DNA of 64,000 bases from a virus (IMGVR_UViG_3300035663_000001:64542-128541); one strand, 5' to 3'; shown: positions 33,253 through 61,278, numbered from the stretch's first letter. The notes: generated by a model from the sequence alone, not told the origin. Numbers and translations are program-made.

Positions 33253-33283
33253 AATGGAAGCTAGAATCCTTAAATATCTAGAC
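33253..33283 (+). repeat. 31-nt dispersed structured motif AATGGAAGCTAGAATCCTTAAATATCTAGAC (copy 1 of 5)
   Basis: also at 34083, 34341, 58652, 61248. Confidence 0.75.
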
Positions 33284-33326
33284 AAAGCGGGTAAATAATA
33301 AAACAAATACTTAAAGAAGTAAATAT

Positions 33327-33412
33327 GGCCTAGTGGCGGAATGGCAGACGCGCCTGACTTAAGATCAGGTACCCTTTCGGGTGTGGGGGTTCAAGTCCCT
33401 CCTGGGCTACTA
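33327..33412 (+). tRNA. tRNA-Leu(TAA)
   Basis: GGCGGAATGGCAGACGC D arm, CT-TAA-GA, long variable arm; ends CTA rather than CCA. Confidence 0.9.
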
Positions 33413-33480
33413 AATGTGATGAATGCATTTATGGATTACATTAGGATAAAAATCTATAAAAATTTTAGTCATCACATTTA
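33411..33480 (+). ncRNA. Y-RNA-like hairpin RNA 1
   Basis: 12-bp closing stem; TGAATGC...GATTACAT...AATTTTAGTCA; three copies near Ro60 gene. Confidence 0.55.
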
Positions 33481-33487
33481 TTTTTAA

Positions 33488-33961
33488 ATGGCTAAATCGA
33501 AAATATCAGATCTCGAGTTTATCGAGTTAGTTAATCGCTCTACCTCTATTGCAGAGGTATTACTAGCACAAAACTTAACTCCGGCTGGAGGAAATTATAA
33601 ATCCTTCTATGCTAGAATCAAACGATTACAAGTATCCCTTGACCATTTTACTGGTCAAGGTCATTTACAAGGGAAGACGCATTCTTGGAATGCTAAGATT
33701 CCACTGTCAGAAATCTTAGTAGAAAATAGTAACTTTAATACCTATCATCTCAAAAATAGATTATTGAAGGAGAAAATACTCAATTATCGTTGTAGTCAGT
33801 GTGGGATTGTTGATTGGCAAGGTAAACCAATTTCTTTACATTTAGATCATATTGATGGTAATAATACCAATCACTCTCTCTCTAATTTAAGAATATTGTG
33901 TCCTAATTGTCATTCGCAAACTCCAACTTATTGTGTTAAAAAACAGATGTTAAATATCTAG
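33488..33961 (+). CDS. HNH endonuclease
   Basis: CSQC...LHLDHIDGNNTN...NLRILCPNCH. Confidence 0.9.
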   Translation: MAKSKISDLEFIELVNRSTSIAEVLLAQNLTPAGGNYKSFYARIKRLQVSLDHFTGQGHLQGKTHSWNAKIPLSEILVENSNFNTYHLKNRLLKEKILNYRCSQCGIVDWQGKPISLHLDHIDGNNTNHSLSNLRILCPNCHSQTPTYCVKKQMLNI

Positions 33962-33974
33962 AACAGTAAAATAT

Positions 33975-34060
33975 GGCCTAGTGGCGGAATGGCAGACGCA
34001 CCTAACTCAAGATTAGGTACCTTTTCGGGTGTGGGGGTTCAAGTCCCTCCTGGGCTACCA
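33975..34060 (+). tRNA. tRNA-Leu(CAA)
   Basis: near-duplicate of Leu(TAA), loop CT-CAA-GA, ACCA. Confidence 0.9.
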
Positions 34061-34082
34061 TCATCCATCTTGGATGATAAAT

Positions 34083-34113
34083 AATGGAAGCTAGAATCCT
34101 TAAATATCTAGAC
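34083..34113 (+). repeat. 31-nt structured motif (copy 2)
   Basis: identical to 33253. Confidence 0.75.
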
Positions 34114-34189
34114 GACTACTAAGTGCGATGAAAGCCTTTATTGCTCCATTAGTGGAGACAGACTACACGATATCTATTGAATAGATTAT

Positions 34190-34265
34190 TCTACTTTAGC
34201 TCAGCGGTAGTAGCAGCGGCCTGTTAAGCCGTGGGTCCCAGGTTCAAATCCTGGAAGTAGAGCAA
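34190..34265 (+). tRNA. tRNA-Asn(GTT)
   Basis: TCTACTT/AAGTAGA, GCGGC-CTGTTAA-GCCGT. Confidence 0.9.
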
Positions 34266-34340
34266 GTATATAGTGAATGCCGTAATTGATTACATTTAAT
34301 TGGATAAAAACATCAATTACAATTTTTGTCATTATATATT
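34265..34340 (+). ncRNA. Y-RNA-like hairpin RNA 2
   Basis: TGAATGCC-GTAATTGAT..GATTACAT..ATCAATTAC-AATTTTTGTCA. Confidence 0.55.
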
Positions 34341-34371
34341 AATGGAAGCTAGAATCCCTAAATATCTAGAC
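34341..34371 (+). repeat. 31-nt structured motif (copy 3)
   Basis: one mismatch to 33253. Confidence 0.75.
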
Positions 34372-34372
34372 A

Positions 34373-34453
34373 GGCAGCTGTCTTGCCAATAGAGATAGAT
34401 TTTTAATCTCTTAAAAGAAGACTAAAGCCGATCGTAACGGCTAGTTGGCGCCA
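34373..34453 (+). ncRNA. tRNA-like RNA (acceptor + T arm + CCA, no canonical anticodon arm)
   Basis: AGCCG-ATCGTAA-CGGCT arm followed by AGTTGGC-GCCA. Confidence 0.4.
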
Positions 34454-34466
34454 TTTTAAAATTAAA

Positions 34467-34531
34467 TATAATGAATGCCGTAATTGATTACATCGGATTA
34501 AATTATATCAATTACAATTTTTGTCATTATA
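34467..34531 (+). ncRNA. Y-RNA-like hairpin RNA 3
   Basis: near-copy of RNA 2 with different apical loop. Confidence 0.55.
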
Positions 34532-34567
34532 GTTATTAACTATATTTGAAAATATAGCTTATCATAA

Positions 34568-34641
34568 GCTAACGTAGCTCAATGGTAGAGCCCTGTTTTG
34601 TAAACAGGCGGTTGGCGGTTCGAGTCCGTTCGTTAGCTCCA
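34568..34641 (+). tRNA. tRNA-Thr(TGT)
   Basis: GCTAACG/CGTTAGC, CCTGT-TTTGTAA-ACAGG, TCCA. Confidence 0.85.
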
Positions 34642-34660
34642 GATATTAAATATTTTTAAT

Positions 34661-34707
34661 CGGCCATTCGTACAAAAGTTAAGTGTCACTGTCTGATAAG
34701 CAGTAGA
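34661..34707 (+). tRNA. tRNA-Ile(GAT), 5' part, interrupted by IS607
   Basis: CGGCCAT acceptor strand, D arm, ACTGT-CTGATAA-GCAGT; 3' part at 36637. Confidence 0.85.
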
Positions 34708-34733
34708 GTTAACATAAATATATAAAAATATAT

Positions 34734-35993
34734 TTAGTTTTTGTTTGTGCCAGGGACTCTAAGCTCCTGACCAGTATTATCAAATAAACCTTCTGATTTC
34801 CAATAGAAACTAGATAGTTTCGATAAATACTGCCGAAAATAAAATCGTATTTCAGGAAGATCTATTTCATGATTAAGTGCCGCATTTAAATCTGCATCTA
34901 TATGCAACTTGCACTCTTTACATTTATATTCCTTACCTTTGCGATTTGCTTTTCGTACTATTCCGCATCCAGAACATCTCTGAGACCGATATGGACTGGA
35001 TTGTAGATTCAGTTGGACCCCAACCTCTTCTAAAACTTTTGTTATTTTATTATGAATTAAAAGATTGCTCCAAGCAGACATTTTTCTGCTAGTTCTTTTT
35101 CCTCGTTTAATATCATACACATGTTCAAGATTGACTTGACCAATATCTTTCCAATTTAATTGGTTAATGGACCAATTAATAAAATTCATTCTATGATCCT
35201 GAGCTTTATTAAAAGCTTTTGATCCTTTTTTCTTTTTGGCAATTTTATTGCAAATAGAATCTAAAGAATGACCATGATTATCTTTCTCTGGAGTTTTATG
35301 CCCATTAGATAAAGTAAGAGCTGTTTTTAATCCAGTATCTCCTCCAACAGTTTTTCCGACCTTTTTAGTGGGAACTGGAACTTCATATCTTAATTGAATA
35401 CAATTTTCTTTGATTAAAACTCCTGCCAATCTTTTTCCAGATGAAGAAATCCATTTCTGGTCTTGTTTGTGATATTTTATAGGAATTTTAACAATATCAA
35501 AACCAGTTCCATACAACTTAATAAACAAGTTAAAGTGATTTGAACTTTCTCGTATTTCTATTTGTTTTTGAGACAGCTCTGCTTGAAAATTTGATCCAAT
35601 AATTGGTTTTGTAAGTTTTAATTTTTCAAGTTTTGATTCCCAATAATTGGAAGACTTATTCTCTTCTTTTCTTTTTTTAATAATATATAATATTTTATTT
35701 CTAATCGATACCCTGCCTTTAACGATTCCAATTGCTTGGGATAAGGCCGCAGAAAGAGCCCTGGCAGATAATTTATCATGACTTATTATTTTATAATCTA
35801 AAAATTTTGGAAGAAATAATAAATCGTCATTAATGCTCCAAATGATTCTTCCATTATGATCTAATAATTTGTTTGACCAAATGTAATCAATATAAGACTG
35901 AACTGCAAATCGATATTCTTTCAAGAAAGAAGAAATTATTTCTTTTTTTCCAGAATTACAATCTTGCAGATAGTGTTTCGTAGATCTAATCAC
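34734..35993 (-). CDS. tnpB: TnpB RNA-guided nuclease
   Basis: RuvC GGDTG, NLE, DADLNAA; CSGC/CKEC Zn finger. Confidence 0.9.
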   Translation of the reverse strand: MIRSTKHYLQDCNSGKKEIISSFLKEYRFAVQSYIDYIWSNKLLDHNGRIIWSINDDLLFLPKFLDYKIISHDKLSARALSAALSQAIGIVKGRVSIRNKILYIIKKRKEENKSSNYWESKLEKLKLTKPIIGSNFQAELSQKQIEIRESSNHFNLFIKLYGTGFDIVKIPIKYHKQDQKWISSSGKRLAGVLIKENCIQLRYEVPVPTKKVGKTVGGDTGLKTALTLSNGHKTPEKDNHGHSLDSICNKIAKKKKGSKAFNKAQDHRMNFINWSINQLNWKDIGQVNLEHVYDIKRGKRTSRKMSAWSNLLIHNKITKVLEEVGVQLNLQSSPYRSQRCSGCGIVRKANRKGKEYKCKECKLHIDADLNAALNHEIDLPEIRFYFRQYLSKLSSFYWKSEGLFDNTGQELRVPGTNKN

Positions 35994-36567
35994 TAGATTC
36001 CTCTAATGTTTTTTTAATTGCTTTTACTTTTTTAGCGCCTCTTCGTAATCCATATAGTCGACAACAAAAGGAAGTAATTATTGCAATTAAATCTTTAATT
36101 AGATCGTTTTCATCTTCTTTATCTCTGTTGATAACAACTAGATGATATCCCAGAATATTTAACAGTCTATCTAGGTAATTAAATCCAAATCTTGTTAATC
36201 TATCTTTATGTTCTACTACAATTCTTTTAGGCTCGGAATTTAATAAAAGATTTAATTGCTTTCTATTATCATTCATTCCAGAAGCAATTTCTTTATAAAC
36301 TTTCTCTACTTCCCAGCCGTTGGCAGTACAAAATTGTAAACATCTTTCTATTTGTCTATTTAAATCATCTTTCTTATTGGAAGAAGATACTCTGCAATAA
36401 ACATAGGTTTTTAATGATTGATTATTTTTAACTACTGAATCTTCTTCTACTAAAATAGTTCCAGATGACAGCTGGATAACTTTTCCTGGCAACTGACCTT
36501 TTTTAAAAAGGTTAAATGCTGTCTGATAAGTTAATCCATTCTTTTTTGCCCATTGAGATAGTTTCAT
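35986..36567 (-). CDS. tnpA: IS607 serine recombinase TnpA
   Basis: MKLSQWAK HTH, YCRVSS, EIASG, EHKDRLTRFGF, FCCRLYGLR. Confidence 0.95.
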   Translation of the reverse strand: MKLSQWAKKNGLTYQTAFNLFKKGQLPGKVIQLSSGTILVEEDSVVKNNQSLKTYVYCRVSSSNKKDDLNRQIERCLQFCTANGWEVEKVYKEIASGMNDNRKQLNLLLNSEPKRIVVEHKDRLTRFGFNYLDRLLNILGYHLVVINRDKEDENDLIKDLIAIITSFCCRLYGLRRGAKKVKAIKKTLEESSD

Positions 36568-36636
36568 TCATTTATATGAAATTATATTAGTATAAATTTA
36601 CATAAAATTATACATTTTAAATAAAATGTCTATAGA

Positions 36637-36665
36637 CGATGGAGCGTTACCATCATGGCCGACCA
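36637..36665 (+). tRNA. tRNA-Ile(GAT), 3' part
   Basis: GATGG-AGCGTTA-CCATC T arm, ATGGCCG-ACCA pairing with 34661. Confidence 0.85.
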
Positions 36666-36689
36666 CACTTTTCAGAAAGCAAGATTATG

Positions 36690-36904
36690 GCACATAAGAT
36701 ATTTATGGCGCTCTTCATCGAGAAGATGGTCCAGCATTAGAAGGAGCCAATGGATATAAGGCTTGGTATCGTAATGATCAACGGCATCGAATAGATGGGC
36801 CGGCCATAGAACATGCTGATGGTAGAAAAAGTTTTTACCTAGCAGGCGATCACTATTCTGAAGAAGAGTATTGGCGAATAGTTAAGCTAAAAGCTTTATG
36901 GTAA
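36690..36904 (+). pseudogene. 5'-damaged HREDGPA-repeat gene
   Basis: two repeats and KLKALW tail, but no in-frame start (TAA upstream). Confidence 0.7.
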
Positions 36905-36907
36905 AGT

Positions 36908-37291
36908 ATGCAAGAAATTATAGATATAATTGGTACTAAATTTTATTATTGTAATGGAGATCTTCATCGGGAAGATGGTCCGGCTATAGAATATATAAAT
37001 GGCGATAAAGCTTGGTGGATTCGCGGTCAACGCCACCGAGAAGATGGTCCCGCAGTAGAATATGTTAATGGAGATAAATGTTGGTATTTTTATGGCCAGT
37101 ACCATCGAGAAGGTGGGCCAGCCGTAGAGGTTTATAATGGAGATAAATCTTGGTGGATTTATGGTCAACTCCATCGAGAAGATGGTCCAGCAGTAGAATA
37201 TGCTGATGGAGAGAAACGATGGTTTCTTCAAGATAAAGAATACTCTGAAGAAGAATATTGGCGAGTAGTCAAGTTAAAAACTTTATGGTAA
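36908..37291 (+). CDS. HREDGPA-repeat protein
   Basis: repeats and tail. Confidence 0.85.
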   Translation: MQEIIDIIGTKFYYCNGDLHREDGPAIEYINGDKAWWIRGQRHREDGPAVEYVNGDKCWYFYGQYHREGGPAVEVYNGDKSWWIYGQLHREDGPAVEYADGEKRWFLQDKEYSEEEYWRVVKLKTLW

Positions 37292-37294
37292 AGT

Positions 37295-37681
37295 ATGCAA
37301 GAAATTATAATAGATGAACGTGGAACTAAAAAATACTATTGGAATGGCAAATTCCATCGAGAAGATGGTCCAGCTATTGAATGGTATGATGGAGATAAGC
37401 ATTGGTTTTTTAATGGTCAAAGACATCGGGAAAATGGTCCGGCTGTAGAGAAGGTTAATGGAGACAAAGAATGGTTTATTTATGATCACCTTCATCGAGA
37501 AGGTGGTCCGGCCATAGATTATGCTAATGGATTTAAGCAGTGGTATTATTATGGAAATTTACATCGAGAAGATGGCCCAGCTATAGAAAATACTCATGGC
37601 CATAAATATTGGCACCTTCAAGGTAAAAGCTATTCAGAAGAAGAATATTGGCGAGTAGTTAAACTAAAAGCTTTATGGTAG
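37295..37681 (+). CDS. HREDGPA-repeat protein
   Basis: repeats and tail. Confidence 0.85.
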   Translation: MQEIIIDERGTKKYYWNGKFHREDGPAIEWYDGDKHWFFNGQRHRENGPAVEKVNGDKEWFIYDHLHREGGPAIDYANGFKQWYYYGNLHREDGPAIENTHGHKYWHLQGKSYSEEEYWRVVKLKALW

Positions 37682-37685
37682 CAAT

Positions 37686-38279
37686 ATGCAAAAAATTGAG
37701 ATAGATGAACATGGCGTTAAAAGATATCGCTGGAATAACCAGCTTCATCGAGAAGATGGTCCAGCAGTAGAATATCCTAATGGAGATAAATCTTGGTGGG
37801 TTTATGATAAATACCATCGGGAAGATGGCCCTGCAGTAGAAGAGGCTGATGGAACTAAAGAGTGGTGGGTTAATGATCGACGACATCGAGAAGATGGTCC
37901 AGCCATAGAATGGTCTGATGGCAGTAAAGAATGGTATCTTCATGATCAACTCCATCGAGAAGATGGTCCAGCAGTAGAAAAGGCCAATGGAGATAAACAC
38001 TGGTATCATCATGATGAATTACATCGAGAAAATGGTCCTGCCATAGAATTGGCTAATGGAGATAAATATTGGTATCGTTATGATCAACGACATCGAGAAG
38101 ATGGACCAGCCATTATCCATGCTAATGGAACTAAAGAATGGTGGCGTTATGATTTGCGCCATCGAGTAGATGGCCCGGCTATAGAACATTCTAATGGAAG
38201 TAAAACTTTTTACCTAGAAGGTAAAAAATATTCGCCAGAAAAATATTGGCGATTAGTTAAATTGCAAGCTTTATGGTAA
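37686..38279 (+). CDS. HREDGPA-repeat protein (7 repeats)
   Basis: repeats and tail. Confidence 0.85.
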   Translation: MQKIEIDEHGVKRYRWNNQLHREDGPAVEYPNGDKSWWVYDKYHREDGPAVEEADGTKEWWVNDRRHREDGPAIEWSDGSKEWYLHDQLHREDGPAVEKANGDKHWYHHDELHRENGPAIELANGDKYWYRYDQRHREDGPAIIHANGTKEWWRYDLRHRVDGPAIEHSNGSKTFYLEGKKYSPEKYWRLVKLQALW

Positions 38280-38280
38280 T

Positions 38281-38523
38281 ATGATATATACAGATATGTT
38301 TAATAATAAACATTATTTTTGTAATGGCAAACTTCATCGAGAAGATGGACCAGCCCTAGAAAATACTAATGGAGATAAATATTGGTATCTTCATGGTCAG
38401 TTACATCGAGAAGATGGTGCCGCCATAGAAAATAATGATGGAACTAAATATTGGTACCTTCAAGGCAAACGATATTCCGAAGAAGAATATTGGAGAGCAC
38501 TTAAATTAAAATCTTTATGGTAA
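38281..38523 (+). CDS. HREDGPA-repeat protein
   Basis: repeats and tail. Confidence 0.85.
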   Translation: MIYTDMFNNKHYFCNGKLHREDGPALENTNGDKYWYLHGQLHREDGAAIENNDGTKYWYLQGKRYSEEEYWRALKLKSLW

Positions 38524-38768
38524 AACATCTAAAAATTATCACTGAACATGCTACATATTATTATTTGGGTCATAAATACCATCGAGAAAATAGTCCCGCC
38601 ATAGAGTATGTTAATGGAGATAAAGAGTGGTGGATTCATGGCAAAAGACATCGAGAAGATGGTCCTGCCAAGGAATATAATGATGGGCGGAAATTCTGGT
38701 ATCTTCAAGGCGAAGAATATTCAGAAGAAGAATATTTTCGAGTACTTAAATTAAAAACTTTGTGGTAA
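38517..38768 (+). CDS. HREDGPA-repeat protein
   Basis: repeats and tail. Confidence 0.85.
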   Translation: MVKHLKIITEHATYYYLGHKYHRENSPAIEYVNGDKEWWIHGKRHREDGPAKEYNDGRKFWYLQGEEYSEEEYFRVLKLKTLW

Positions 38769-38771
38769 AGT

Positions 38772-39227
38772 ATGCAAGAAATAGAAACAGATCAATTTGG
38801 TATATATTATTACTGGAATAATCAGTTGCACCGAGAAGATGGTCCGGCAGTAGAAGATTATGAGGGAGATAAAGAATGGTGGCTTCATGGTCAGCGTCAT
38901 CGAGAAGATGGTCCAGCAGTAGAATTTTCTAATGGAAGTAAATTTTGGTATCGTCATAGCCTTCTTCATCGAGAAGATGGTTCAGCAGTAGAAAAGGTTA
39001 ATGGATATAAAGGGTGGTGGATCCACGGTCGATGTCATCGAGAAAACGGACCAGCTATAGAATATGCCGATGGAAGTAAAGATTGGTGGCTTCAGGGAAA
39101 ACGGCATCGAGAAGATGGACCTGCAGCAGATCATACTGATGGATATAAAGCGTGGTACCTTCAAGGTAAAAAATATTCAGAGAAAGAATATTGGCGAGTA
39201 GTTAAATTAAAAGCTTTGTGGTATTAA
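38772..39227 (+). CDS. HREDGPA-repeat protein
   Basis: repeats and tail. Confidence 0.85.
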   Translation: MQEIETDQFGIYYYWNNQLHREDGPAVEDYEGDKEWWLHGQRHREDGPAVEFSNGSKFWYRHSLLHREDGSAVEKVNGYKGWWIHGRCHRENGPAIEYADGSKDWWLQGKRHREDGPAADHTDGYKAWYLQGKKYSEKEYWRVVKLKALWY

Positions 39228-39228
39228 T

Positions 39229-39819
39229 ATGAATATAAATAAAGAATTATTTTCTCGTTTAGGAATCAAAGAATTAATTCTCACCCAAGAAAGTGATTGG
39301 ATTAAAGTTATTATTCCAGACAAGAAGCAACAAGAATCTTTCCGTTTAGCTAAAATTCAAGAAGATGACTCTCGAGATAATGAATTATATGATCATGCTT
39401 TTCAAAATTCTAGAGAACAAAGTTTGTTCTGTACGACGGAATCCAAAGGCGCAGAATTTGCCGTTCAAGAATGGGGCGGTGGTACTGCTCGGGTAACTCA
39501 ACCTAATGAATTTCATTCTTATCCCGATGTAGGTCAAGTCAATGTTCGTCATATCAATGATCCAGAAGATGGATTAATGATTATGAAAAAGGACCAAAAT
39601 AAAGTTCCATTAGTATTAGTGACTGGTAAAATGCCAGAATATTTTCTTATGGGCTGGACTATTCCGGCTTATGCGAAGCAATATATTTATCGAATTAATT
39701 TGGGTCGAGAAAAATTAGGAGATGGTTTTTTGCATAATATGCAGCCGCACGAGGCATGCACATTTAGCAAGCAATGGTTATTCCCGATGTGGTCTCTCAA
39801 TAAAGATTTAGTTAAATAA
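39229..39819 (+). CDS. hypothetical phage protein (possible PD-(D/E)xK-like fold)
   Basis: GAEFAV...PDVG.VNVR...LVTG...GW. Confidence 0.45.
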   Translation: MNINKELFSRLGIKELILTQESDWIKVIIPDKKQQESFRLAKIQEDDSRDNELYDHAFQNSREQSLFCTTESKGAEFAVQEWGGGTARVTQPNEFHSYPDVGQVNVRHINDPEDGLMIMKKDQNKVPLVLVTGKMPEYFLMGWTIPAYAKQYIYRINLGREKLGDGFLHNMQPHEACTFSKQWLFPMWSLNKDLVK

Positions 39820-39842
39820 TTAAGGATAATTAACAGGTAAGT

Positions 39843-42072: not shown

Positions 42073-42159
42073 CCTTGACAATCTTTACTTTGAGGTTATA
42101 TTATACCACTCTGGGAAATTATCCTGTCTGACTAGATCTCTGAGAGGACCCGTTGTCTG
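42073..42159 (+). pseudogene. duplicated promoter + 5' half of the tRNA-Tyr-like gene
   Basis: close match to 31741-31862, ending in the anticodon loop. Confidence 0.75.
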
Positions 42160-46954: not shown

Positions 46955-47338
46955 TTAAGCGGTGGAGTTATCTCTAACATATTTGTCTTGAGGAAAAGAA
47001 CCATCAGGTCGATACACCGCAGTAATTGCTCTCTCAGATAGGCATTCAAAATCAGTATATTCGCCTTGTTCTTGAACGACAATATCGCCCTCCTGGTAAA
47101 TATTGTCATTCATCTTGACGGATCCTAATAAGATAATAGTCACTTCTTCGCTTTTTAAATGGCAATGGGATTGTTCATAATCCCCTTGTTGATAATATTT
47201 GAATCCTAATTCATAATCCTTTTGATATACATGGGGCTCAAATTGCCCCACCATCCATCCACGAGTCATATTATTTAATTTAAATAATTTCATTTTTATT
47301 TCCAGGTAAAATTTATGCAAATCTGTATTCACTGTCAC
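46955..47338 (-). CDS. cupin-domain protein (likely start 47293)
   Basis: GWMVGQFEP...HCH...E...GDIVV. Confidence 0.7.
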   Translation of the reverse strand: MTVNTDLHKFYLEIKMKLFKLNNMTRGWMVGQFEPHVYQKDYELGFKYYQQGDYEQSHCHLKSEEVTIILLGSVKMNDNIYQEGDIVVQEQGEYTDFECLSERAITAVYRPDGSFPQDKYVRDNSTA

Positions 47339-53391: not shown

Positions 53392-54651
53392 GCAAGGACA
53401 CCCTCAGCCTTGTGCTGAGGGAGGAATTGCCTCTCCTTTCTGCTATCTAAATAAATTTTTAGGTTACACAAAAATTCCTATATATTGATATATCACTACA
53501 TATGAGGTTATATAGAACGGTCAAACTAAAACTTGATGTCAAGGCAGAAGAAATTCTACCTTCACTGCAAGCTTATACTGCTGCTTTTAATCTTGTCTGT
53601 CAAATAGGTTACAAGAGCAAAATAACTAATTCTATTAAACTACATAAGCTAACTTACCAAGACTGTCGAACTAACTTTAACTTACCATCTCAATTAGCAA
53701 TTTCTGCTAGAACTAAAGCCGCAGAAGCTCTTAAAAGCATTAAAGCTAAAAATAAGTATAGCAAATGTCCACAGTCAAAGTTAGCTGCCATTCGACTAGA
53801 TTGTAATAGCTACTCTATCTCTAAATCTGGAGTTGTGTCTATTCTGACTATTGCTGGTAGAAAGAAAATTAAGCTAGATATTCCTCAGTATTATCAGCAT
53901 TATTTTACTGATTGGAAGTATACTAGTGCTGACCTTCTGATTAAGAAGAATACTATCTATTTGCATATCTCTTTTGAGAAAGAAAGAGAAGACGTAAAGG
54001 TTAATGGTAAGTTTTTAGGAGTTGATCGAGGTATCAAAAAGTTAGCCGTTACTTCAGATAATAAGTTTTATTGCGGAAGTAAACTTAAGTCAATATGTCA
54101 CAAGTATAAAGCATTAAGGAGAAAATTACAGAAAGTTGGTAGTCCATCTGCTAAAAGGCATCTTAGAAACCTTTCAGGTAAAGAAAAACGGTTTAAAGCA
54201 GACATTAACCATCAGATTAGTAAACAGATTATTAATAGTTTAAATCCAGGTGATACCGTAGTACTAGAAAAGTTAATTGGTATTAGAAGATCACGTATGA
54301 GAAAACCTCAAAGATCAGCCTTGAATAGTTGGAATTATTATCAACTAGAGCAGTTCCTAACCTATAAAGGTCAGGCAAAAGGCATACAAGTAGTCCATGT
54401 TAATCCTGCTTATACCAGTCAACAATGTAGTAAATGCGGGTTTACTGAGAAGAAAAACAGGAAGACTCAGGTTAGTTTTTGTTGTCAACAATGTGGATTT
54501 AAACTAAATGCAGACTTAAATGCTAGTAGAAATATTAGCAGACGAGCATTAGATGACTATATGTTATTTAATGGGGCTGAAGTCAATCAGCCTATGGTAA
54601 GAGCAGCGAAGCTACTTACAAGCCACCAGCCTTGTGCTGGTGATAATTGAC
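53392..54651 (+). mobile_element. IS200/IS605-family (IS1341-type, tnpB-only) element
   Basis: subterminal hairpins with shared CAGCCTTGTGCTG core at both ends; right end ...AATTGAC. Confidence 0.8.
53502..54650 (+). CDS. tnpB: TnpB RNA-guided nuclease
   Basis: GVDRG, VLE, NPAYTSQQCSKC, CQQC, NADLNAS. Confidence 0.95.
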   Translation: MRLYRTVKLKLDVKAEEILPSLQAYTAAFNLVCQIGYKSKITNSIKLHKLTYQDCRTNFNLPSQLAISARTKAAEALKSIKAKNKYSKCPQSKLAAIRLDCNSYSISKSGVVSILTIAGRKKIKLDIPQYYQHYFTDWKYTSADLLIKKNTIYLHISFEKEREDVKVNGKFLGVDRGIKKLAVTSDNKFYCGSKLKSICHKYKALRRKLQKVGSPSAKRHLRNLSGKEKRFKADINHQISKQIINSLNPGDTVVLEKLIGIRRSRMRKPQRSALNSWNYYQLEQFLTYKGQAKGIQVVHVNPAYTSQQCSKCGFTEKKNRKTQVSFCCQQCGFKLNADLNASRNISRRALDDYMLFNGAEVNQPMVRAAKLLTSHQPCAGDN

Positions 54652-54680: not shown

Positions 54681-54998
54681 ATGGCAAAAGAAATAATACG
54701 ATTTAGCAATAAGATTCTCTATTTCGAGGATGACCATCTCCATCGAGAAGATGGTCCAGCCATCGAGTTTGCAGATGGTTCTCAAGAATGGTATTTTAAC
54801 GATCAACGTCATCGAGAAGGAGGCCCCGCCATAGAATGGTCTGATGGCAGTAAAGCTTGGTATCTTCATGGTCAACGACATCGAGAAGATGGGCCAGCAG
54901 CCGAATATTCTAGCGGTTTTAAAGCTTGGTTTATTAATGATAAACAATATTCAGAAGAAGACTATTGGCGAGTGGTTAAATTAAAAACTTTATGGTGA
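54681..54998 (+). CDS. HREDGPA-repeat protein
   Basis: repeats and tail. Confidence 0.85.
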   Translation: MAKEIIRFSNKILYFEDDHLHREDGPAIEFADGSQEWYFNDQRHREGGPAIEWSDGSKAWYLHGQRHREDGPAAEYSSGFKAWFINDKQYSEEDYWRVVKLKTLW

Positions 54999-55002
54999 AG
55001 TT

Positions 55003-55317
55003 ATGCAAGAAATTAAAGAAGATCACTGGGGAAAATATTATTATTGGAGTGATCGTCTCCATCGAGAAGATGGCCCTGCGATAAAATTTTTTAATGGCGA
55101 TGAACATTGGTATCTTCATGGCTCTCGTCATCGAGAAGATAGACCAGCCGTAGAATATGCTAATGGAACTAAATATTGGTATCTTCATGGTCAACGACAT
55201 CGAGAAGATGGACCAGCCATAGAATGGTCTAATGGAGATAAAGAGTGGTACCTTCAAGGTAAACAATATACAGAAGAAGAATATTGGCGGCTAGTTAAAT
55301 TAAAAGCTTTATGGTGA
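55003..55317 (+). CDS. HREDGPA-repeat protein
   Basis: repeats and tail. Confidence 0.85.
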   Translation: MQEIKEDHWGKYYYWSDRLHREDGPAIKFFNGDEHWYLHGSRHREDRPAVEYANGTKYWYLHGQRHREDGPAIEWSNGDKEWYLQGKQYTEEEYWRLVKLKALW

Positions 55318-55320
55318 AGT

Positions 55321-55707
55321 ATGCAAGAAATTAAGATAGATAAAGATGGAACTAAAAGATATTATTGGAATGGTTAGCTGCATCGAGAAGATGGTCCAGC
55401 CATAGAATGGCCTAATGGAACTAAAGAGTGGTATTTTCATAATCAACTCCATCGAAAAGATGGTCCAGCCCTAGAATATAATAATGGATCTAAAGAGTGG
55501 TATTTTTATGGAAAGTACCACCGAGAAGATGGCCCGGCCAGAGAATATGCTGATGGAAGTAAAATATGGTGTCTTCATGGTCTTTTCCATCGAGAAGATG
55601 GCCCGGCTATCGAATATGCTAATGGAGATAAATCTTGGTACCTTCACGGTACGCCATATTCAGAAGAAGACTATTGGAGAGTGGTTAAATTACAAGCTTT
55701 GTGGTAA
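55321..55707 (+). pseudogene. full-length HREDGPA-repeat gene with a single in-frame TAG at 55375
   Basis: NG*LHRED where paralogs have NGQLHRED or NGKLHRED. Confidence 0.85.
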
Positions 55708-55710
55708 AGT

Positions 55711-56097
55711 ATGCAAGAAATTAAAATAGATGAATTTGGTAATAAAAGATATTATTGGAATGGTATCATACATCGAGAAGACGGTCCGGCAATAGAGTAT
55801 ATTAATGGGGATAAATATTGGTATTGTCATGGGCGATGGCATAGAGAAGACGGCCCAGCGATAGATAGTTCCCTTGATGGAAAACATTGGTATCTTCATA
55901 GTCAACGTCATCGAGAAGACGGTCCGGCGATAGAATATGCTGATGGTAGTAAAGAATATTGGATTCATGGAAAACGCCATCGAGAAGATGGCCCTGCTCT
56001 AGAATATTCTAATAAAATGAAAGAATGGTACCTTCAAGGTAAACAATATTCAGAGCAAGAATATTGGCGAGTGGTTAAATTGAAAGCTTTATGGTAA
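55711..56097 (+). CDS. HREDGPA-repeat protein
   Basis: repeats and tail. Confidence 0.85.
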   Translation: MQEIKIDEFGNKRYYWNGIIHREDGPAIEYINGDKYWYCHGRWHREDGPAIDSSLDGKHWYLHSQRHREDGPAIEYADGSKEYWIHGKRHREDGPALEYSNKMKEWYLQGKQYSEQEYWRVVKLKALW

Positions 56098-56420
56098 AAT
56101 TTATGCAAAAAATTAAGATAGATAAATTCGGCAATAAAGAATACTATTGGAATGGTGAATTACATCGAGAAGATGGACCCGCAGTAGAATGTGCTAATGG
56201 AGATAAAGAATGGTATTTTAATGACCGATATCATCGAGAAGATGGTCCAGCGGTAGAATTTATTTCTGGATATAAATCTTGGTGGTTTCATGGTCAACGT
56301 CATCGAGAAGATGGTCCAGCAGTAGAATATGCTAATGGTCATAAAGAATGGTGGATTAGACATATTCAGTATTCTGAAGAAAATTATTGGAGAGTAGTAA
56401 AGCTCAAAGTTTTATGGTAA
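56091..56420 (+). CDS. HREDGPA-repeat protein
   Basis: repeats and tail. Confidence 0.85.
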   Translation: MVKFMQKIKIDKFGNKEYYWNGELHREDGPAVECANGDKEWYFNDRYHREDGPAVEFISGYKSWWFHGQRHREDGPAVEYANGHKEWWIRHIQYSEENYWRVVKLKVLW

Positions 56421-56423
56421 AGT

Positions 56424-56879
56424 ATGCAAGAAATTATAATAGATGAACTTGGGACTAAAAGATACTATTGGAATGATGAATTGCATCGAGAAGATGGTCC
56501 AGCGATAGAATATTTTAATGGAGACAAATTTTGGTATTTTCATGGACAATGTCATCGAGAAGATAAACCAGCTATAGAATGTAATAATGGTGATCAAGAG
56601 TGGTGGATTTATGATAAATTACATCGAGCAGATGGTCCAGCAATAGACTTTATTAGTGGCCGTCAAGAATGGTGGATTCATGGTAAAAAACATCGAGAAG
56701 GTGGTCCAGCCATCATCTGGGATGATGGCTATAAAGCTTGGTATATATCAGGCCAACGACATCGAGAAGATGGTCCGGCCATAGAATATAGTAATGGGTA
56801 TAAAGAATGGTATCTTCACGGTACACCATATACAGAAGAAGATTATTGGAGAGTAGTTAAATTAAAAGCTTTATGGTAA
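56424..56879 (+). CDS. HREDGPA-repeat protein
   Basis: repeats and tail. Confidence 0.85.
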   Translation: MQEIIIDELGTKRYYWNDELHREDGPAIEYFNGDKFWYFHGQCHREDKPAIECNNGDQEWWIYDKLHRADGPAIDFISGRQEWWIHGKKHREGGPAIIWDDGYKAWYISGQRHREDGPAIEYSNGYKEWYLHGTPYTEEDYWRVVKLKALW

Positions 56880-57536
56880 ATTAATATTCGTAATATGACT
56901 CCAAGTTTTTCCAGTAATAATTTTTTTAATGGCAGCTCGACTCACATTAAATAATTGAGCTAATTGTTGTTGACTATAATTTTTTCTATATAATTCCACT
57001 ATTTTTAACACTTGCTCTCCCTTAAGTTTAGCTTGACTGGTTTTTTCTCCTACCGGAATTTTCCTATTAGGAAATTTTCTACCGACATTAATCTGATGTC
57101 CTTTTTTAAATCCATGGGTAATTCCTATTTTTCCTTTTAACCAAGAGGGTTGCCCCGGCTTAAAACTTCCACTATTAGGTTTAATGATACCTTTAGTTCC
57201 CTTATTCCATGCAGAACACACTGGTTTATTATTACCACCAATAGTCGCATTATATCCAAATGGTGCTTGCGATTGATATTGAGCAATTAATTCAATTTCT
57301 GACTCATTGGCTAAATTTAAACTAGTTGTGGTAGCAATTACTTCAAAAGTAAAATTTTCTACCCCATATTTCTTAATAGCTTTAGAAATTAACATTAATG
57401 GAGAAAGGTGACGGGCATCAATTTTATGCCGGCGCCACCTTTGTTTCGGATTTTTTGTTTGACCAATATAAATTTTATTATTTACTTGATTGATGATCCG
57501 ATATAGATAATAGGAGATATTTTGCATATCTCCCAT
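56871..57536 (-). CDS. GIY-YIG homing endonuclease (Seg-like) with NUMOD/HTH tail
   Basis: YLY...IYIGQT...R...H, KYG.ENF, E...I, GYN; AWNKG. Confidence 0.85.
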   Translation of the reverse strand: MGDMQNISYYLYRIINQVNNKIYIGQTKNPKQRWRRHKIDARHLSPLMLISKAIKKYGVENFTFEVIATTTSLNLANESEIELIAQYQSQAPFGYNATIGGNNKPVCSAWNKGTKGIIKPNSGSFKPGQPSWLKGKIGITHGFKKGHQINVGRKFPNRKIPVGEKTSQAKLKGEQVLKIVELYRKNYSQQQLAQLFNVSRAAIKKIITGKTWSHITNINLP

Positions 57537-57543
57537 ATATCAA

Positions 57544-58473
57544 TTATAGTTGAGTCCATTCAAACGTAGTAGTATTAAAGGACCAAGTATCATTATAGAC
57601 GACATCGTATCCATTAGTACCACCTGTTAGAATAACTCGGCTGGATTGAATATCATACACCATCATGGCGCCTACTCGACCCGGAGGATTATTAGCCGGG
57701 GCTCTCTTAGTCCAAGCCGTACGACCAGCATTCAATGTCCAAGTCTCACTGGGTAACACGTCAGAGTTATTAGCACCACCAAATAAAACCCATAAGTTAT
57801 TGGCAGGGTCATAGGTTAAACAACCACCATAACGAGCAGAAGGGGGAGTGGTGGGGGTGTTTTGGGTCCACGTAGTACCGTTAAACGACCACGTATCACC
57901 AAACATCTCATTCGTTCCTAATCCACCAAACAATACACAATTGCTATTACCACCACTAAACATAAAGTCAGTGCGAGCGGCTGGTTTAGCAGCGGGAGCT
58001 AATAACGTCCAGGTTTTTAAATTACCATCCCATTGCCAAGTTTCATCTAATACATTGTTTTCATTGCAACCACCAAACATAATTGCTTTTGGGGCCGCCA
58101 CGTTTAATAAAGCTAATTTAGCTTTATAACGAGCAAAGGGTGATGTTGGTGGAGCTTCTTTTGTCCAAGAAACGCTAGCATTGCCAACAGTCCAGGTATC
58201 TCCTAAGACACCAGTTTCTCCCTTACCACCATACATTAAGGCGTTATATCCATCATAACACATGGCCATATCAATTCTAGTTGGTAATGGACCACTACCT
58301 AGCGCAGAAATTGGTCGACTCCAGTCAGTACCTGACCATTTCTCAGTAAAGTTTAAAAAGCTGGAATCAGCCGGGTAATTTCCTGTGTTTAGTAACACCA
58401 CTTTATTACCAGCAAAAGCGGTAGTGGCAGCAATTCCGGCATAAGAACAACGAAGGGGATTATTAGTTGGCAT
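57544..58473 (-). CDS. kelch-repeat beta-propeller protein
   Basis: repeated P.AR...LFGG...DTW...W. Confidence 0.8.
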   Translation of the reverse strand: MPTNNPLRCSYAGIAATTAFAGNKVVLLNTGNYPADSSFLNFTEKWSGTDWSRPISALGSGPLPTRIDMAMCYDGYNALMYGGKGETGVLGDTWTVGNASVSWTKEAPPTSPFARYKAKLALLNVAAPKAIMFGGCNENNVLDETWQWDGNLKTWTLLAPAAKPAARTDFMFSGGNSNCVLFGGLGTNEMFGDTWSFNGTTWTQNTPTTPPSARYGGCLTYDPANNLWVLFGGANNSDVLPSETWTLNAGRTAWTKRAPANNPPGRVGAMMVYDIQSSRVILTGGTNGYDVVYNDTWSFNTTTFEWTQL

Positions 58474-58611
58474 TTTATCTCCATCTAGATATTGACGGCT
58501 TCTAGCTGCCGTTATATTAACCTAACTTTATGTGAAAGAATACATAGAAATTGATAGAATCAAAACTTACGCTCCACCAAATATTTGAGTATTTTTAAAA
58601 ATTTCTGTCTC

Positions 58612-58639
58612 TTGACAAGTATTTTGTAAAATTTAACTT
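58612..58639 (+). promoter_or_regulatory. sigma70-like promoter for tsf
   Basis: TTGACA-N16-TAACTT. Confidence 0.55.
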
Positions 58640-58651
58640 TAACCCGGCAAC

Positions 58652-58682
58652 AATGGAAGCTGGGATCCTTAAATATTCAGAC
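58652..58682 (+). repeat. 31-nt structured motif (copy 4, in tsf leader)
   Basis: CTGGG/TTCAG variant of the stem. Confidence 0.7.
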
Positions 58683-58697
58683 ACCTACGAGGACATA

Positions 58698-59564
58698 ATG
58701 CTCAATAAACAAGAATTAATTAAAGAATTACGAAGATTAACTTCGGCTGGCATGTCAGATTGCTTAGCGGCGCTCCAAGAAGCTAATTGGGATCTAACAC
58801 AAGCCGTAGATATAGTAAAAATTAAAGGACTCAATGTAGTCTCTAATCGAGACACTAATGTAGTTAGAGAAGGGGTAGTCTCTATTTTAGATTTACCAAC
58901 CGCCAAAATTATGGTCGAAATAAATTGTCAAACAGATTTTGTGGCTCGGTCCAAAGAATTTAAAGACTTTACTCAAGTAACTTTGCACACAATTAAAGAT
59001 TGTGTGGTAAAAAACATGCCCTTTTCAGTATCACTGGTCGAAGATGCTAGAAAGACATTAATGTCTATTACTAAAGAAAATATTGTAGTTTCTCGATGGT
59101 GGGTACAAGAAAGTTTGTCTCCGACAGCCGTTGTTTGCTCTTATTTACATTCCAATGAGAAAATTGGAGTCCTCTTAACTCTTCAATCTGCTTCCTTAGT
59201 AACAGGTTCAGCTTTAGCATTACAATGTCTACAACTAGAATCATTAGGCGCAGAATTAGCGATGCAGGTGGCCGCCATGAATCCTTTAGCCGTCTCTCCT
59301 GAACAACTTGACACTGCCACGGTAGAGAGACAAGAGCATATTTTTAAAGCTCAATTACAAGAATTAAATAAGCCAGAAGCCGCTTGGCCTAAGATTTTAG
59401 CAGGTAAATTTAATAAATGGCATCAAGAAGTATGTCTGTTAAATCAAGAATCGGTGGTGTTTCCTAAAACCAGCGTGGCTCAAGTCTTAGAAAAAGCTGA
59501 GAAATCAATAGCACCAGGTATTACTGTTGTTAACTTTATCAGATGTCAAGTAGGTGAATGCTGA
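58698..59564 (+). CDS. tsf: translation elongation factor Ts
   Basis: IKELRRLTSAGMSDC..AL, EINCQTDFVAR, ENIVV.R, AMQVAAMNP, KILAGK, CLLNQ. Confidence 0.9.
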   Translation: MLNKQELIKELRRLTSAGMSDCLAALQEANWDLTQAVDIVKIKGLNVVSNRDTNVVREGVVSILDLPTAKIMVEINCQTDFVARSKEFKDFTQVTLHTIKDCVVKNMPFSVSLVEDARKTLMSITKENIVVSRWWVQESLSPTAVVCSYLHSNEKIGVLLTLQSASLVTGSALALQCLQLESLGAELAMQVAAMNPLAVSPEQLDTATVERQEHIFKAQLQELNKPEAAWPKILAGKFNKWHQEVCLLNQESVVFPKTSVAQVLEKAEKSIAPGITVVNFIRCQVGEC

Positions 59565-59605
59565 TTCTTTAAAAGATTATAATTTACAATTAAAGCCACA
59601 AAATC

Positions 59606-59971
59606 ATGAATAAAAAACAATTATTGCAAGAAATGCAAGAGAGTATTGGTACTAAAGACCCAATCGTCTTTTTTTCGCAGATGGTAAATGTTTTCGACCT
59701 TCTATTTTCTAAAATAGAAGAATTAGAACAACAATTATCAAAAATTAAAAATCAATCCGCCCTTTCCATTCAATGGGATCCTAAATTAGCCTTGATAATG
59801 ATTGCTAAGGAAATCAATAATTTACGAGCCTTAGATAAAGAAACTTATGCTTCTGAAATTGCTCAGTTAAAACAAGCCTATTCAGAAGATAAAGTAACAC
59901 AATCTTATCCAGAATTTTGTCAATTCTGGGAAAACACCTTAGGTTGGCACCCCTTTATCGATTATAAATAA
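59606..59971 (+). CDS. hypothetical protein
   Basis: ORF. Confidence 0.5.
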   Translation: MNKKQLLQEMQESIGTKDPIVFFSQMVNVFDLLFSKIEELEQQLSKIKNQSALSIQWDPKLALIMIAKEINNLRALDKETYASEIAQLKQAYSEDKVTQSYPEFCQFWENTLGWHPFIDYK

Positions 59972-59972
59972 C

Positions 59973-60365
59973 ATGTTTACTTCCATTGGCAAACTAATTT
60001 ATAGCCCTCGGAGTCATTTAGGTTCCAATGAGAGATGGCTAGTCTTAATGTGTGACGATGAAATTTCTAAATATTATCGTCATATGTTTTATCAGCAGTT
60101 TCCATGGAAAGGAAAATTAACTCGCCCGGTCTGGGGCACCCATATCTCTATTATTCGGGGAGAGAAAATTCCTAATTATCATTTATGGGGATTGCAGGCC
60201 AATAAAATTGTGGAATTTCAATACCAACCTGGAGTATTAGATAATGGAGAATACTTTTGGCTCAAAGTAAAATCTCCTTTTCTCTCAGAAATTAGAGAAA
60301 CTTATGGTTTGACTAAAGAGCCAAAATTTGGATTTCATCTCACTATAGGAAGAAAATGTGAATAA
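59973..60365 (+). CDS. 2H phosphoesterase-like protein
   Basis: two Hx(S/T) motifs: HISI and HLTI. Confidence 0.7.
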   Translation: MFTSIGKLIYSPRSHLGSNERWLVLMCDDEISKYYRHMFYQQFPWKGKLTRPVWGTHISIIRGEKIPNYHLWGLQANKIVEFQYQPGVLDNGEYFWLKVKSPFLSEIRETYGLTKEPKFGFHLTIGRKCE

Positions 60366-60597
60366 CTATTGCGATCAACACCAAAACACAGTCGGATCTG
60401 ATTGTCCTTATTGTGTGAACGAAAAATTAACTTATGAATTGAAAATGATTCAAGAATCTTTTGTGGCCGCTATTAAAAGTAAAACTAATAAAGGAGGCCA
60501 ACAAGTCCCCTATCATGGAGATTTTGCTAATATTTCACCTTCTGTCATTCGAGATATGACTTTCTATCTCGAAAGATGGGAACAAGTTCTTAAATGA
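60358..60597 (+). CDS. hypothetical protein
   Basis: ORF. Confidence 0.4.
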   Translation: MNNYCDQHQNTVGSDCPYCVNEKLTYELKMIQESFVAAIKSKTNKGGQQVPYHGDFANISPSVIRDMTFYLERWEQVLK

Positions 60598-60667
60598 GAT
60601 ATATTGTATGTTGCCATTAACAACTTTTACCTCTGAGAGGTAAGAATAAAACACAAGGAGTTTAATT

Positions 60668-60958
60668 ATGAGTTTACAGCCATTAAGAGATTTTATTGTC
60701 GTCGCTAAACCAGTAGAAGAAGAAAAAACAGAAAGCGGTTTAATTTTTAAACCCGCCACAGCCGATTCTAAAGTGTCCAAAAGTAAAGTCTTGGCCGCTG
60801 GTTCTGGCAGAGTAACTATGTCGGGAACTGTCGTACCTTTAGAAGTCAAAGAAGGGGATACAGTTTTCTTTAATAAGCACCATGCGACTGAGTTAGCAGA
60901 TGGTTCGCAAACAGTTTTTCTGTTGAGAGAAGATCAAGTTTTAGCAGTAGTGAAATGA
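60668..60958 (+). CDS. groES: co-chaperonin GroES
   Basis: LQPLRDFIVV, TESGL, VLAAGSG, VKEGDTV, LREDQVLAVV. Confidence 0.9.
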   Translation: MSLQPLRDFIVVAKPVEEEKTESGLIFKPATADSKVSKSKVLAAGSGRVTMSGTVVPLEVKEGDTVFFNKHHATELADGSQTVFLLREDQVLAVVK

Positions 60959-61236
60959 AAATTAAAAGAAATTTGTCTACTCCGGAAGGCAAAGCATTTT
61001 GGGATTCGGCCGAATTAATTGCTCAACAAGCAGAACATTGGCCGGATTCCAAATTAGCTGGCATTAATGTTTCTCCTACTCGTCAAAAAGATCCTATTGG
61101 AGAGTTTATTGGATGGATCATTTATATAGAGGGACTACTCATTATGAGTAGTGAAAAATGGAATCCAGAGTGGAAATTATCTACAGGAAAATATTATCTC
61201 TATATGGGGGAGTTATCTAAATTATTAACCAGGTAA
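60955..61236 (+). CDS. hypothetical protein
   Basis: ORF overlapping groES stop. Confidence 0.45.
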   Translation: MKIKRNLSTPEGKAFWDSAELIAQQAEHWPDSKLAGINVSPTRQKDPIGEFIGWIIYIEGLLIMSSEKWNPEWKLSTGKYYLYMGELSKLLTR

Positions 61237-61247
61237 ATATTTCCAGC

Positions 61248-61278
61248 AATGGAGGCTGGGCTCCTTAAATATCCAGAT
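61248..61278 (+). repeat. 31-nt structured motif (copy 5)
   Basis: GGAG/CTCC and CTGGG/TCCAG variant. Confidence 0.7.

Follow-up and report, generated by a model that had tools for sequence, protein, structure and literature searches.

A 30-nucleotide (nt) element that occurs seven times in a 128.5-kb virus record of IMG/VR (IMGVR_UViG_3300035663_000001, here G000) appears to fold as a compact H-type pseudoknot. It is probably a transcribed cis-acting RNA of messenger RNA (mRNA) 5' leaders and of the spacers of a tRNA island, not a promoter. The DNA analysed, called the window below, is the second half of the record, a stretch of 64,000 nt (record positions 64,542–128,541); coordinates count from its first letter unless stated otherwise. 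We tentatively read the element as a mobile, transcribed leader knot that acts as a barrier or insulator, giving this somewhat less than an even chance.

An earlier note, made from the sequence of the window alone, had listed copies at 33253, 34083, 34341, 58652 and 61248. All five match a degenerate 30-mer on the plus strand with 0 mismatches; 100 dinucleotide-preserving shuffles gave no match, and the chance expectation is 0. A Hamming scan of the whole record, used to look for further copies, added a sixth with one mismatch at genome position 47306 (plus strand), outside the window, and a seventh on the minus strand at 58513..58484, with five differences from the consensus. The next-best stretches of the record are at least 9 of 30 positions off consensus and lie in coding sequence.

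Copies 1 (33253..33282) and 2 (34083..34112) both have the consensus sequence and stand 44 nt before tRNA-Leu(taa) and 77 nt before tRNA-Asn. Copy 3 (34341..34370) differs by T18C and lies directly after a hairpin element and 2 nt before a putative tRNA-mimic-like stretch. Copy 4 (58652..58681) is in the EF-Ts leader, where the earlier note had placed one copy: it ends 8 nt before the Shine-Dalgarno sequence (SD) GAGGA and 16 nt before the ATG at 58698 of the EF-Ts gene (58698..59564, plus strand; Pfam EF_TS, E = 5.7e-48). Copy 5 (61248..61277) starts 11 nt after the stop of the open reading frame (ORF) 60955–61236 and about 100 nt before ORF 61384–61665; the next ORFs after copies 5 and 6 are ~75–100 nt from the motif end. 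Copy 7 (58484..58513, minus strand) ends 10 nt before the ATG (58473) of a Kelch-repeat gene (57544..58473, minus strand), and the SD GGAG begins 2 nt after it. A 13-nt 3' half-motif (motif positions 18–30) is found at 33950..33962 (plus strand), ending 12 nt before tRNA-Leu(caa). It forms the end of an HNH ORF (33488–33961), and the TAG of its TCTAGA is the stop codon; this ORF lies between two tRNA-Leu genes.

Hairpins precede several copies. One of 17 nt (33233..33249, plus strand) separates copy 1, across a gap of 3 nt, from the CCA end of a tRNA-like element that ARAGORN does not call. Another of 19 nt (34060..34078, plus strand) lies between tRNA-Leu(caa) and copy 2, with a gap of 4 nt. 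The earlier note had both copies follow a tRNA CCA and a 17-nt hairpin, which describes copy 1 correctly and gives the wrong hairpin length for copy 2. Copy 3 was said to follow a Y-like RNA. The hairpin element before it exists and is of a repeated, GATTACAT-bearing kind, and the likeness to Y RNA comes down to a sub-threshold YrlA match of a sister element at 33416–33478 (19.4 bits against a gathering score of 69). A further hairpin, CAGCGA...TCGCTG followed by CACCTAG, lies 75 nt upstream of copy 6 (L006 1385–1430; genome ~47190–47235).

Full copies total 11 in four records: seven in G000, one in G001, two in G009 and one in L232. A strict pattern and a loose pattern (17 fixed letters) searched over IMG/VR returned one other contig, G001, a 29.9-kb fragment rated 7% complete; a search with a pattern of the 5' half added L232, a 6-kb contig. 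A covariance model built from the first eight copies and searched in 58 related records, taken from a set of 80 related loci, found two copies and a lone 5' half in G009. The protease-like proteins of this 18.6-kb fragment and of G001 share 89% identity. The isolated half (motif positions 1–13; G009:C1:2426–2444, locus L216) is followed immediately by GAGG and an ATG. By the covariance model the element is absent from the other 57 of the 58 records, where the best match is at chance level (21.3 bits); these include six rated 97–100% complete, of 433–481 kb. Loci matching the loose pattern in metagenomes (57) and in 185,579 genomes, one per prokaryote species (39), are all at least 6 of 30 positions off consensus and stand in unrelated, for the most part coding, contexts. 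From these searches of relatives, metagenomes and species genomes we therefore conclude that the element is confined to one narrow sub-lineage of a large huge-phage clade and is not host sequence.

The earlier note had not recognised the family, and Rfam gives it no name either. Over the window, only seven tRNA matches reach the gathering score in Rfam 15, and in 32900–34700 and 58400–61500 no match at E up to 10 touches a motif copy. In the complete relative G002, scanning with a pseudoknot descriptor returned 57 matches against 26–40 in mononucleotide shuffles, and no family recurred among them. A match after tRNA-Ser(gga) in G003 has only AATGGAAGCTA in common with the motif, and this is the start of another tRNA-like fold. 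That fold (L195 1508–1590) is tRNA-sized and uncalled by ARAGORN; its GGAAGC pairs with GCTTCC ~75 nt downstream, and only its first 11 letters match the motif.

The case for a folded RNA comes from the stems. In the proposed fold, numbering the motif 1–30 from its first A, stem 1 pairs positions 4–6 with 15–17 (GGA/UCC) and can be extended to 4–5 base pairs (bp) in two copies, and stem 2 pairs positions 9–13 with 25–29 (CUAGA/UCUAG). Loop 1 is positions 7–8 (1–2 nt), loop 2 is position 14 and loop 3 is positions 18–24, the A-rich 7 nt UUAAAUA. Interleaved in this way, the two helices would make the H-type knot. The stem variants on which the earlier note had based its proposal of compensatory change (CTAGA/TCTAG, CTGGG/TTCAG and CTGGG/TCCAG; GGA/TCC and GGAG/CTCC) are all present: CTGGG/TTCAG is stem 2 of copy 4, and copy 5 combines GGAG/CTCC with CTGGG/TCCAG. 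The minus-strand copy 7 adds a new stem-1 variant, GGC/GCC; its stem 1 is lengthened to ACGGC/GCCGT by two double changes and its loop 3 is GTCAATA.

Relative to the consensus, copy 4 is substituted at positions 11, 13, 26 and 27, copy 5 at 7, 11, 13, 14 and 27, and copy 7 at 3, 6, 15, 18 and 20. Thirteen of these 14 substitutions fall in two paired registers, i+j = 21 and i+j = 38. A11:T27 is changed to G:C and A6:T15 to C:G. Two pairs are gained, G:C in place of the A7/A14 mismatch and C:G in place of T3/T18; the rest of the changes lead to G-U pairs, and no core pair is broken. We placed the same numbers of substitutions at random on the consensus, counting changes common to copies 4 and 5 once. 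All core pairs stayed intact in 0.18% of 200,000 trials (P 0.0018), and in 0.02% when both gained pairs were also required (P 0.0002). Across the 11 copies and eight core pairs, 85 of 88 cells hold standard pairs and three pairs are changed on both sides; for stem 1 the count is 32 of 33, and double changes occur twice. None of 500 shuffles reached the covariation score, and sliding the structure by 1–3 columns left only 16–51% of cells paired. Loop and junction letters A2, G8, T19, A21, A22 and A24 are near-invariant (10–11 of 11 copies), and A21 and T25 are invariant.

All 11 full copies are co-oriented with the next gene or tRNA, the single minus-strand copy included, and copies 4 and 7 point outwards within one divergent intergenic region (58484–58681). 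Besides the distances already given, the motif ends 12 nt before the portal gene in G009, 14 nt before a prohead-protease-like gene in G001, 16 nt before a small ORF (the second G009 copy) and 26 nt before an HREDGPA-repeat gene (L232). A good SD (GGAG, AGGAG or GAGGA) begins 1–8 nt after the motif in copies 4 and 7, the G001 copy and the portal copy of G009.

The sites of the element differ between relatives. The portal and protease of the motif-bearing close relatives are 87–89% identical, yet the motif sites are non-orthologous: it precedes the portal gene in G009 and not in G001, where it stands before the protease-like gene, adjoining an inserted HNH gene. That protease-like gene is directly coupled to the upstream ORF in most of 79 other relatives, a few of which have another HNH insert, and the motif is at this junction in none of the 79. 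Because its places in close relatives differ and are non-orthologous, the element appears to be a small regulatory cassette that is mobile inside a single narrow lineage of phages. The HNH ORF of G001, which is not that of G000, has its stop at the other CTAG of a full motif.

Two leaders bear on whether the motif is transcribed or is itself a promoter. A sigma-70-type promoter is predicted upstream of the EF-Ts gene (tsf) at 58612..58639 on the plus strand (TTGACA, a 16-nt spacer and TAACTT, with an A/T-rich tract before them). When the tsf leaders of G000, G002 and G005 are aligned, they have in common an A/T-rich tract, TTGAC(A/T), a 16-nt spacer and TAnnnT; among these three only G000 has the motif, between predicted promoter and SD, and in G002 and G005 the SD is within ~15–20 nt of the promoter-like element. 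This layout predicts a tsf start at ~58645–58647, 5–7 nt upstream of copy 4. A similar arrangement holds at the portal gene. In 74 of 80 relatives (loci L250–L329) a GATATAT or GATATGT element lies upstream, mostly 40–77 nt before the match start and often of the form TGATATATTAT, which resembles an extended -10; the TGATATATTAT-like element is probably the portal promoter across these huge phages. G009 retains this element, at a distance of 117 nt, with the motif placed between the element and the SD.

RNA data, in the form of assembled contigs from three freshwater metatranscriptome runs of one study (5–6% of words), bear on copy 7. The Kelch-repeat gene is the only gene of 44–64 kb that these contigs cover well (window 57664–58497), and is a candidate abundantly expressed phage gene; elsewhere on 44–64 kb there are only three short RNA fragments of 94–166 nt, and absence there is no evidence. 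One error-free contig (depth 4.7) reaches 58497, position 17 of copy 7, and so takes in motif positions 17–30 with the entire TCAATAT stretch.

A start downstream of stem 2 would remove the SDs, since these begin 1–8 nt after the motif. The letters of the would-be -10 also vary, with A20C in two copies and T23G in three (the G009/L232 branch). A consensus promoter scan of 58300–58800 placed no site inside either motif copy, and by eye no -35-like hexamer lies 16–18 nt upstream of TAAATA within the conserved block.

We propose that the element is a fixed, protein-independent structural module at the front of an expression unit, a position suggested because it lies 1–8 nt upstream of the SD or ahead of tRNAs. 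Loop 3, UUAAAUA, could lie in the groove of stem 1. The knot would stop decay that depends on the 5' end or runs 5'-to-3', or would halt other machines that travel along the RNA. In this way it would protect the RNA behind it and isolate the context of the RNA and its ribosome-binding site (RBS) from upstream sequence; the proposed mode is that of the coremin exonuclease-resistant RNA (xrRNA) knots of plant viruses and of 5' stabiliser structures. The role has to suit tRNAs as well as mRNAs that are unrelated in what they encode and in when they are expressed. It also has to be compatible with insertion into leaders already in place, and to rely on a small knot whose loops are conserved; for these reasons we favour a barrier or insulator. 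The earlier note's reading is supported in part: the element behaves as a folded motif of two interleaved helices and is apparently transcribed, and 'processing or stabilising element' remains the best guess, whereas an operator for translation genes, a riboswitch or a ribozyme is not supported, as set out below.

A more specific and doubtful version, which we rate as unlikely, makes the element a phage counterpart of xrRNAs: a mobile 30-nt Watson-Crick 'coremin-like' knot that physically stops 5'-to-3' decay of the RNase J type or translocating machines. Such a knot would set the 5' boundaries and half-lives of mRNAs and tRNA precursors without a protein. More generally, if the fold and a barrier role of any kind are real, the element would be among the smallest natural RNA modules that protect or insulate bacterial transcripts, before mRNAs and tRNAs alike, and one that a huge phage copies to new places. 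A principle established for the xrRNAs of eukaryotic RNA viruses would then hold for DNA phages too. Giant phages would then standardise gene expression with portable leaders, and synthetic biology would gain a 30-nt insulator part.

Several observations weigh against the barrier or insulator. On the side of the fold, each helix alone is weak (-1.7 to -7.5 kcal/mol, helices scored singly and not as a knot), folding z-scores are near 0 in six of the seven copies folded, copy 7 being the exception, and stability of the knot would need stacking, a protein or a ligand. The covariation comes from few independent events (~4 double changes), the structure was derived from the same sequences that were used for the pairing statistics, and the strand asymmetry is slight (85 of 88 cells paired in sense against 83 of 88 in antisense). 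Copies 4 and 5 also have a predicted competing hairpin that uses the upstream CCRGC, an alternative pairing that the earlier note had pointed out and for which CCGGC and CCAGC are indeed in place. Half-motifs stand alone next to gene starts (33950; G009 2426–2444), which a strict knot model does not explain. On the side of transcription, the RNA evidence is a single low-depth contig of unassigned strand that may reflect DNA carry-over or read-through, and contigs cannot show RNA ends; the tsf and portal promoters are predicted at the level of consensus sequences, and a second, tandem promoter inside the motif is possible. As for a barrier, no conserved second hairpin follows the motif, though coremin needs one for exonuclease resistance. 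A barrier to 5'-to-3' decay also supposes a host that has a 5'-to-3' exonuclease.

The near-invariance of the loop and junction letters while the stems vary would also be expected of an operator for a phage RNA-binding protein that reads the loops on the knot and co-regulates translation, processing or antitermination, as T4 gp32 or RegA do on their mRNA targets and lambda N on nut sites. Helices too weak alone suit a fold stabilised by protein, four mRNA copies lie 1–8 nt from an SD, and the T4 gene 32 operator is, in the published description, a 5' leader pseudoknot followed by UUAA(A) repeats (PMC3014915). We nevertheless hold this to be an outside chance of some substance. A candidate protein is not identified, three of the seven G000 copies precede tRNAs or non-coding RNAs, which offer no object for translational control, and the genes have neither a function nor a timing class in common: the promoter predicted for EF-Ts is of sigma-70 type, and the portal protein is structural. 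That the operator serves translation genes, as the earlier note had supposed, is not supported by the downstream units, which are unrelated (EF-Ts, Kelch-repeat, portal, prohead-protease-like and HREDGPA-repeat genes, tRNAs and a tRNA mimic). An operator would define a new phage regulon. Rather unlikely, too, in our view is that the motif works as DNA, as a promoter read by a sigma factor or polymerase specific to the phage; TAAATAT would be its -10, the start would lie near position 31, and the dyad would be incidental or bind a regulator. The motif does head expression units, on both sides of the divergent region 58484–58681 among others; leaders of 10–26 nt would result in six copies, A21 and T25 are invariant, and TTAAATAT is enriched on the coding strand (29 against 7). 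Complete relatives also encode a sigma-70-family ORF of ~214 amino acids (aa): the candidates in G005, G002 and G003 (L247, L248 and L249) have 214–225 aa and match sigma-70 region 2 at E 7.8e-8 to 3.3e-5, and none was found in the 128.5-kb fragment. However, double substitutions that preserve pairing are unexpected where one protein reads a site in duplex DNA. At tsf and portal the motif comes after the promoter-like elements that the clade conserves, a -35 element at the proper distance is missing, and the RNA contig contains the supposed -10 of copy 7. A cognate promoter would moreover be expected throughout a clade sharing the sigma factor, whereas 57 of 58 related records lack the motif. 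A T7-like polymerase was not found, though the control genomes of that search were silent too.

The relocation between close relatives could instead reflect an element that works as DNA, a boundary repeat for cassette exchange or a homing-endonuclease target, with the RNA fold secondary. The G001 motif adjoins an inserted HNH gene that is missing from this junction in 79 relatives, the HNH ORF of G000 ends in a half-motif, and a 5' half stands alone in G009; promoter-early stem-loops (PeSLs) are described as repeated composite motifs that mediate modular shuffling (PMC4122927). Yet homologous recombination needs identity, not compensatory stem changes, 30 nt is short for efficient homologous exchange, and the two HNH proteins of G000 and G001 are only distantly alike (E = 0.038). 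A role in expression is what the strict co-orientation with transcription and the fixed place ahead of the SD suggest, and we consider the DNA-level element improbable. Least probable is a ligand-sensing riboswitch of preQ1-I-like size and topology, or a self-cleaving ribozyme. The preQ1-I arrangement is likewise that of a compact H-type knot whose third loop is A-rich and which lies beside an SD, and in copies 4 and 5 predicted alternative folds pair the 3' strand of stem 1 (A/CUCCU) with the SD or an SD-like purine run. The RNA contig end at position 17 coincides with the half-motif start at position 18, but that end is a single low-depth observation. Against either activity, searches around the copies brought up no Rfam riboswitch or ribozyme at E up to 10, the motif is followed by neither a terminator nor a conserved expression platform, and the copies front tRNAs and functionally unrelated genes. 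To our knowledge 30 nt is below the size of any known self-cleaving ribozyme class. These results leave little of the small riboswitch or ribozyme that the earlier note had entertained. Whether the element is an insulating knot or a protein operator, its narrow range and shifting sites show how regulatory cassettes spread.

Other candidates were tried and rejected. A small leader peptide (ATG at positions 2–4 with an open frame) fails on changes that are radical in the peptide (R to G, L to S/P) and compensatory in the RNA, on the ACG in place of ATG in copy 7 and on the lack of an SD before the ATG. An extracytoplasmic-function (ECF)-type promoter (GGAAGC ... TCTAGA) would start within or after the SDs. 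For a sigma-54 site the GG-to-GC spacing is one base short and the GC occurs in copy 7 only. A CRISPR-like or solitary repeat does not agree with the irregular copy spacing, nor with the absence of a genuine copy among the 39 loci from the 185,579 species genomes. A ribozyme of HDV-like or theta type formed with the preceding hairpin has, by eye, no room for the nested helices, and no Rfam matches. Mimicry of a host element is set aside on the divergence and unrelated contexts of the 57 metagenome and 39 genome loci.

The source of the window is an uncultured huge phage from a lake. The 128.5-kb record has a CheckV completeness of 28%, which makes it one piece of a phage that would measure roughly 450 kb. 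We assign it to the huge-phage clade because its EF-Ts is 45–52% identical to that of three complete clade members and the tsf promoter architecture is common to G000 and its clade relatives; the EF-Ts homologues were recovered by a genome search, whereas a related-locus search returned none. The window encodes EF-Ts, a Kelch-repeat protein, homing endonucleases, IS607-type genes, a class II aminoacyl-tRNA synthetase, Ro60, an RNA ligase and a second TnpB, and ARAGORN calls seven tRNAs. The IS607-type pair, a serine resolvase and a TnpB with a Cas12f1-like TNB domain, lies on the minus strand beside the tRNA island (34734–36567), and the second, solitary TnpB (OrfB_IS605) at 53502–54650. A promoter-like family (A/T-rich tract, G/C-rich run, TTGACA, 16–17-nt spacer and a TATATT-like hexamer) has sites at 31743–31790, 42075–42122, 18791, 27779, 46924, 58612 and 63960; the one at 31743 heads the tRNA island and is almost the same as that at 42075 over ~45 nt. 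In G009 (L222 612–7765) the large terminase (981 aa) and portal protein (1358 aa) are both much enlarged by inserted segments, which, judged by eye from the translations, resemble inteins with homing-endonuclease parts.

Among known systems, the preQ1-I aptamer is an H-type knot of ~30–34 nt with an A-rich third loop next to an SD, and the phage element is like it in size, topology, loop and SD adjacency. It differs in that the Rfam model does not match it at E up to 10, in that it stands before tRNAs and before genes with no relation to queuosine, and in that the SD is outside stem 2.

Among the phage motifs described in the cited reports, PeSLs are the nearest precedent for a repeated, relocating regulatory motif. 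They too are short conserved intergenic motifs repeated in one phage genome at the boundaries of variable genes, with positions that differ between close relatives (PMC4122927). PeSLs are described as composites of a terminator and an early promoter in T4-type phages (PMC4122927; PMC2839356), whereas the phage element has neither a T-tract terminator hairpin nor a convincing promoter and shows pseudoknot-type covariation instead. No terminator-like site lies inside the plus-strand motif at 58652–58681, and one plus-strand site (58496–58508) lies opposite the strand of copy 7. Neither of the hairpins that precede copies 1 and 2 belongs to the repeat or carries a T tract, and their sequences are not alike.

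For a 5' leader pseudoknot tied to message stability, the nearest phage precedent in the cited account is the T4 gene 32 knot. T4/T2 gene 32 transcripts are reported as the most stable T4 mRNAs, and their 5' leader has an H-type pseudoknot of two short coaxial stems upstream of an A/U-rich stretch and RBS (PMC3014915). The T4 knot is a single-copy autoregulatory site, bound by gp32, 67 nt upstream of one gene (PMC3014915), which encodes the ssDNA-binding protein, and the UUAA(A) repeats behind the knot extend to the RBS; the phage element is multi-copy, lies before unrelated genes and tRNAs, and is 10–26 nt from start codons. The two have no sequence similarity.

The closest published architecture, as far as the cited descriptions go, is the coremin xrRNA (xrRNA-C) of plant and other RNA viruses. 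Coremin has a 3-bp hairpin whose loop contacts the sequence after a spacer, U13 U14 A15-17 C18 U19 A20 C21; this contact has Watson-Crick variants, and the loop consensus is YGAD (4 nt) or YGNNAD (6 nt) (PMC6546385, PMC10321173). For exonuclease resistance it needs a second hairpin of at least 4 bp directly after the spacer (PMC6546385). The phage element shares the 3-bp first hairpin, the loop contacting sequence after an A-rich spacer, the H-type topology and a first loop of 1–2 nt. Its spacer is a partial parallel, beginning UUAAA directly after the hairpin region, with CUA following, and a role as mechanical barrier is proposed for the element. UUAAA directly follows stem 1 in 8 of 11 copies, with CUAG 3 nt later; the coremin spacer is 10 nt and ends CUAC, and that of the phage element is 3 nt longer and has a different last letter. 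Most copies of the phage element have a loop of 8 nt (AGCUAGAA) and copy 5 has GCUGGG instead, neither being YGAD or YGNNAD, and stem 2 has five Watson-Crick pairs. The sequences after the phage copies share no hairpin, mRNA copies have an SD within 1–8 nt, and the host is bacterial. Because it lacks the YGAD loop and the obligatory second hairpin, and its spacer is not exactly that of coremin, we do not file the element as a coremin member; it may have a similar mode of action only. Viruses are known to have small pseudoknots in leaders and spacers, and we regard the element as a variant of these that is restricted to one lineage and listed in no RNA catalogue.

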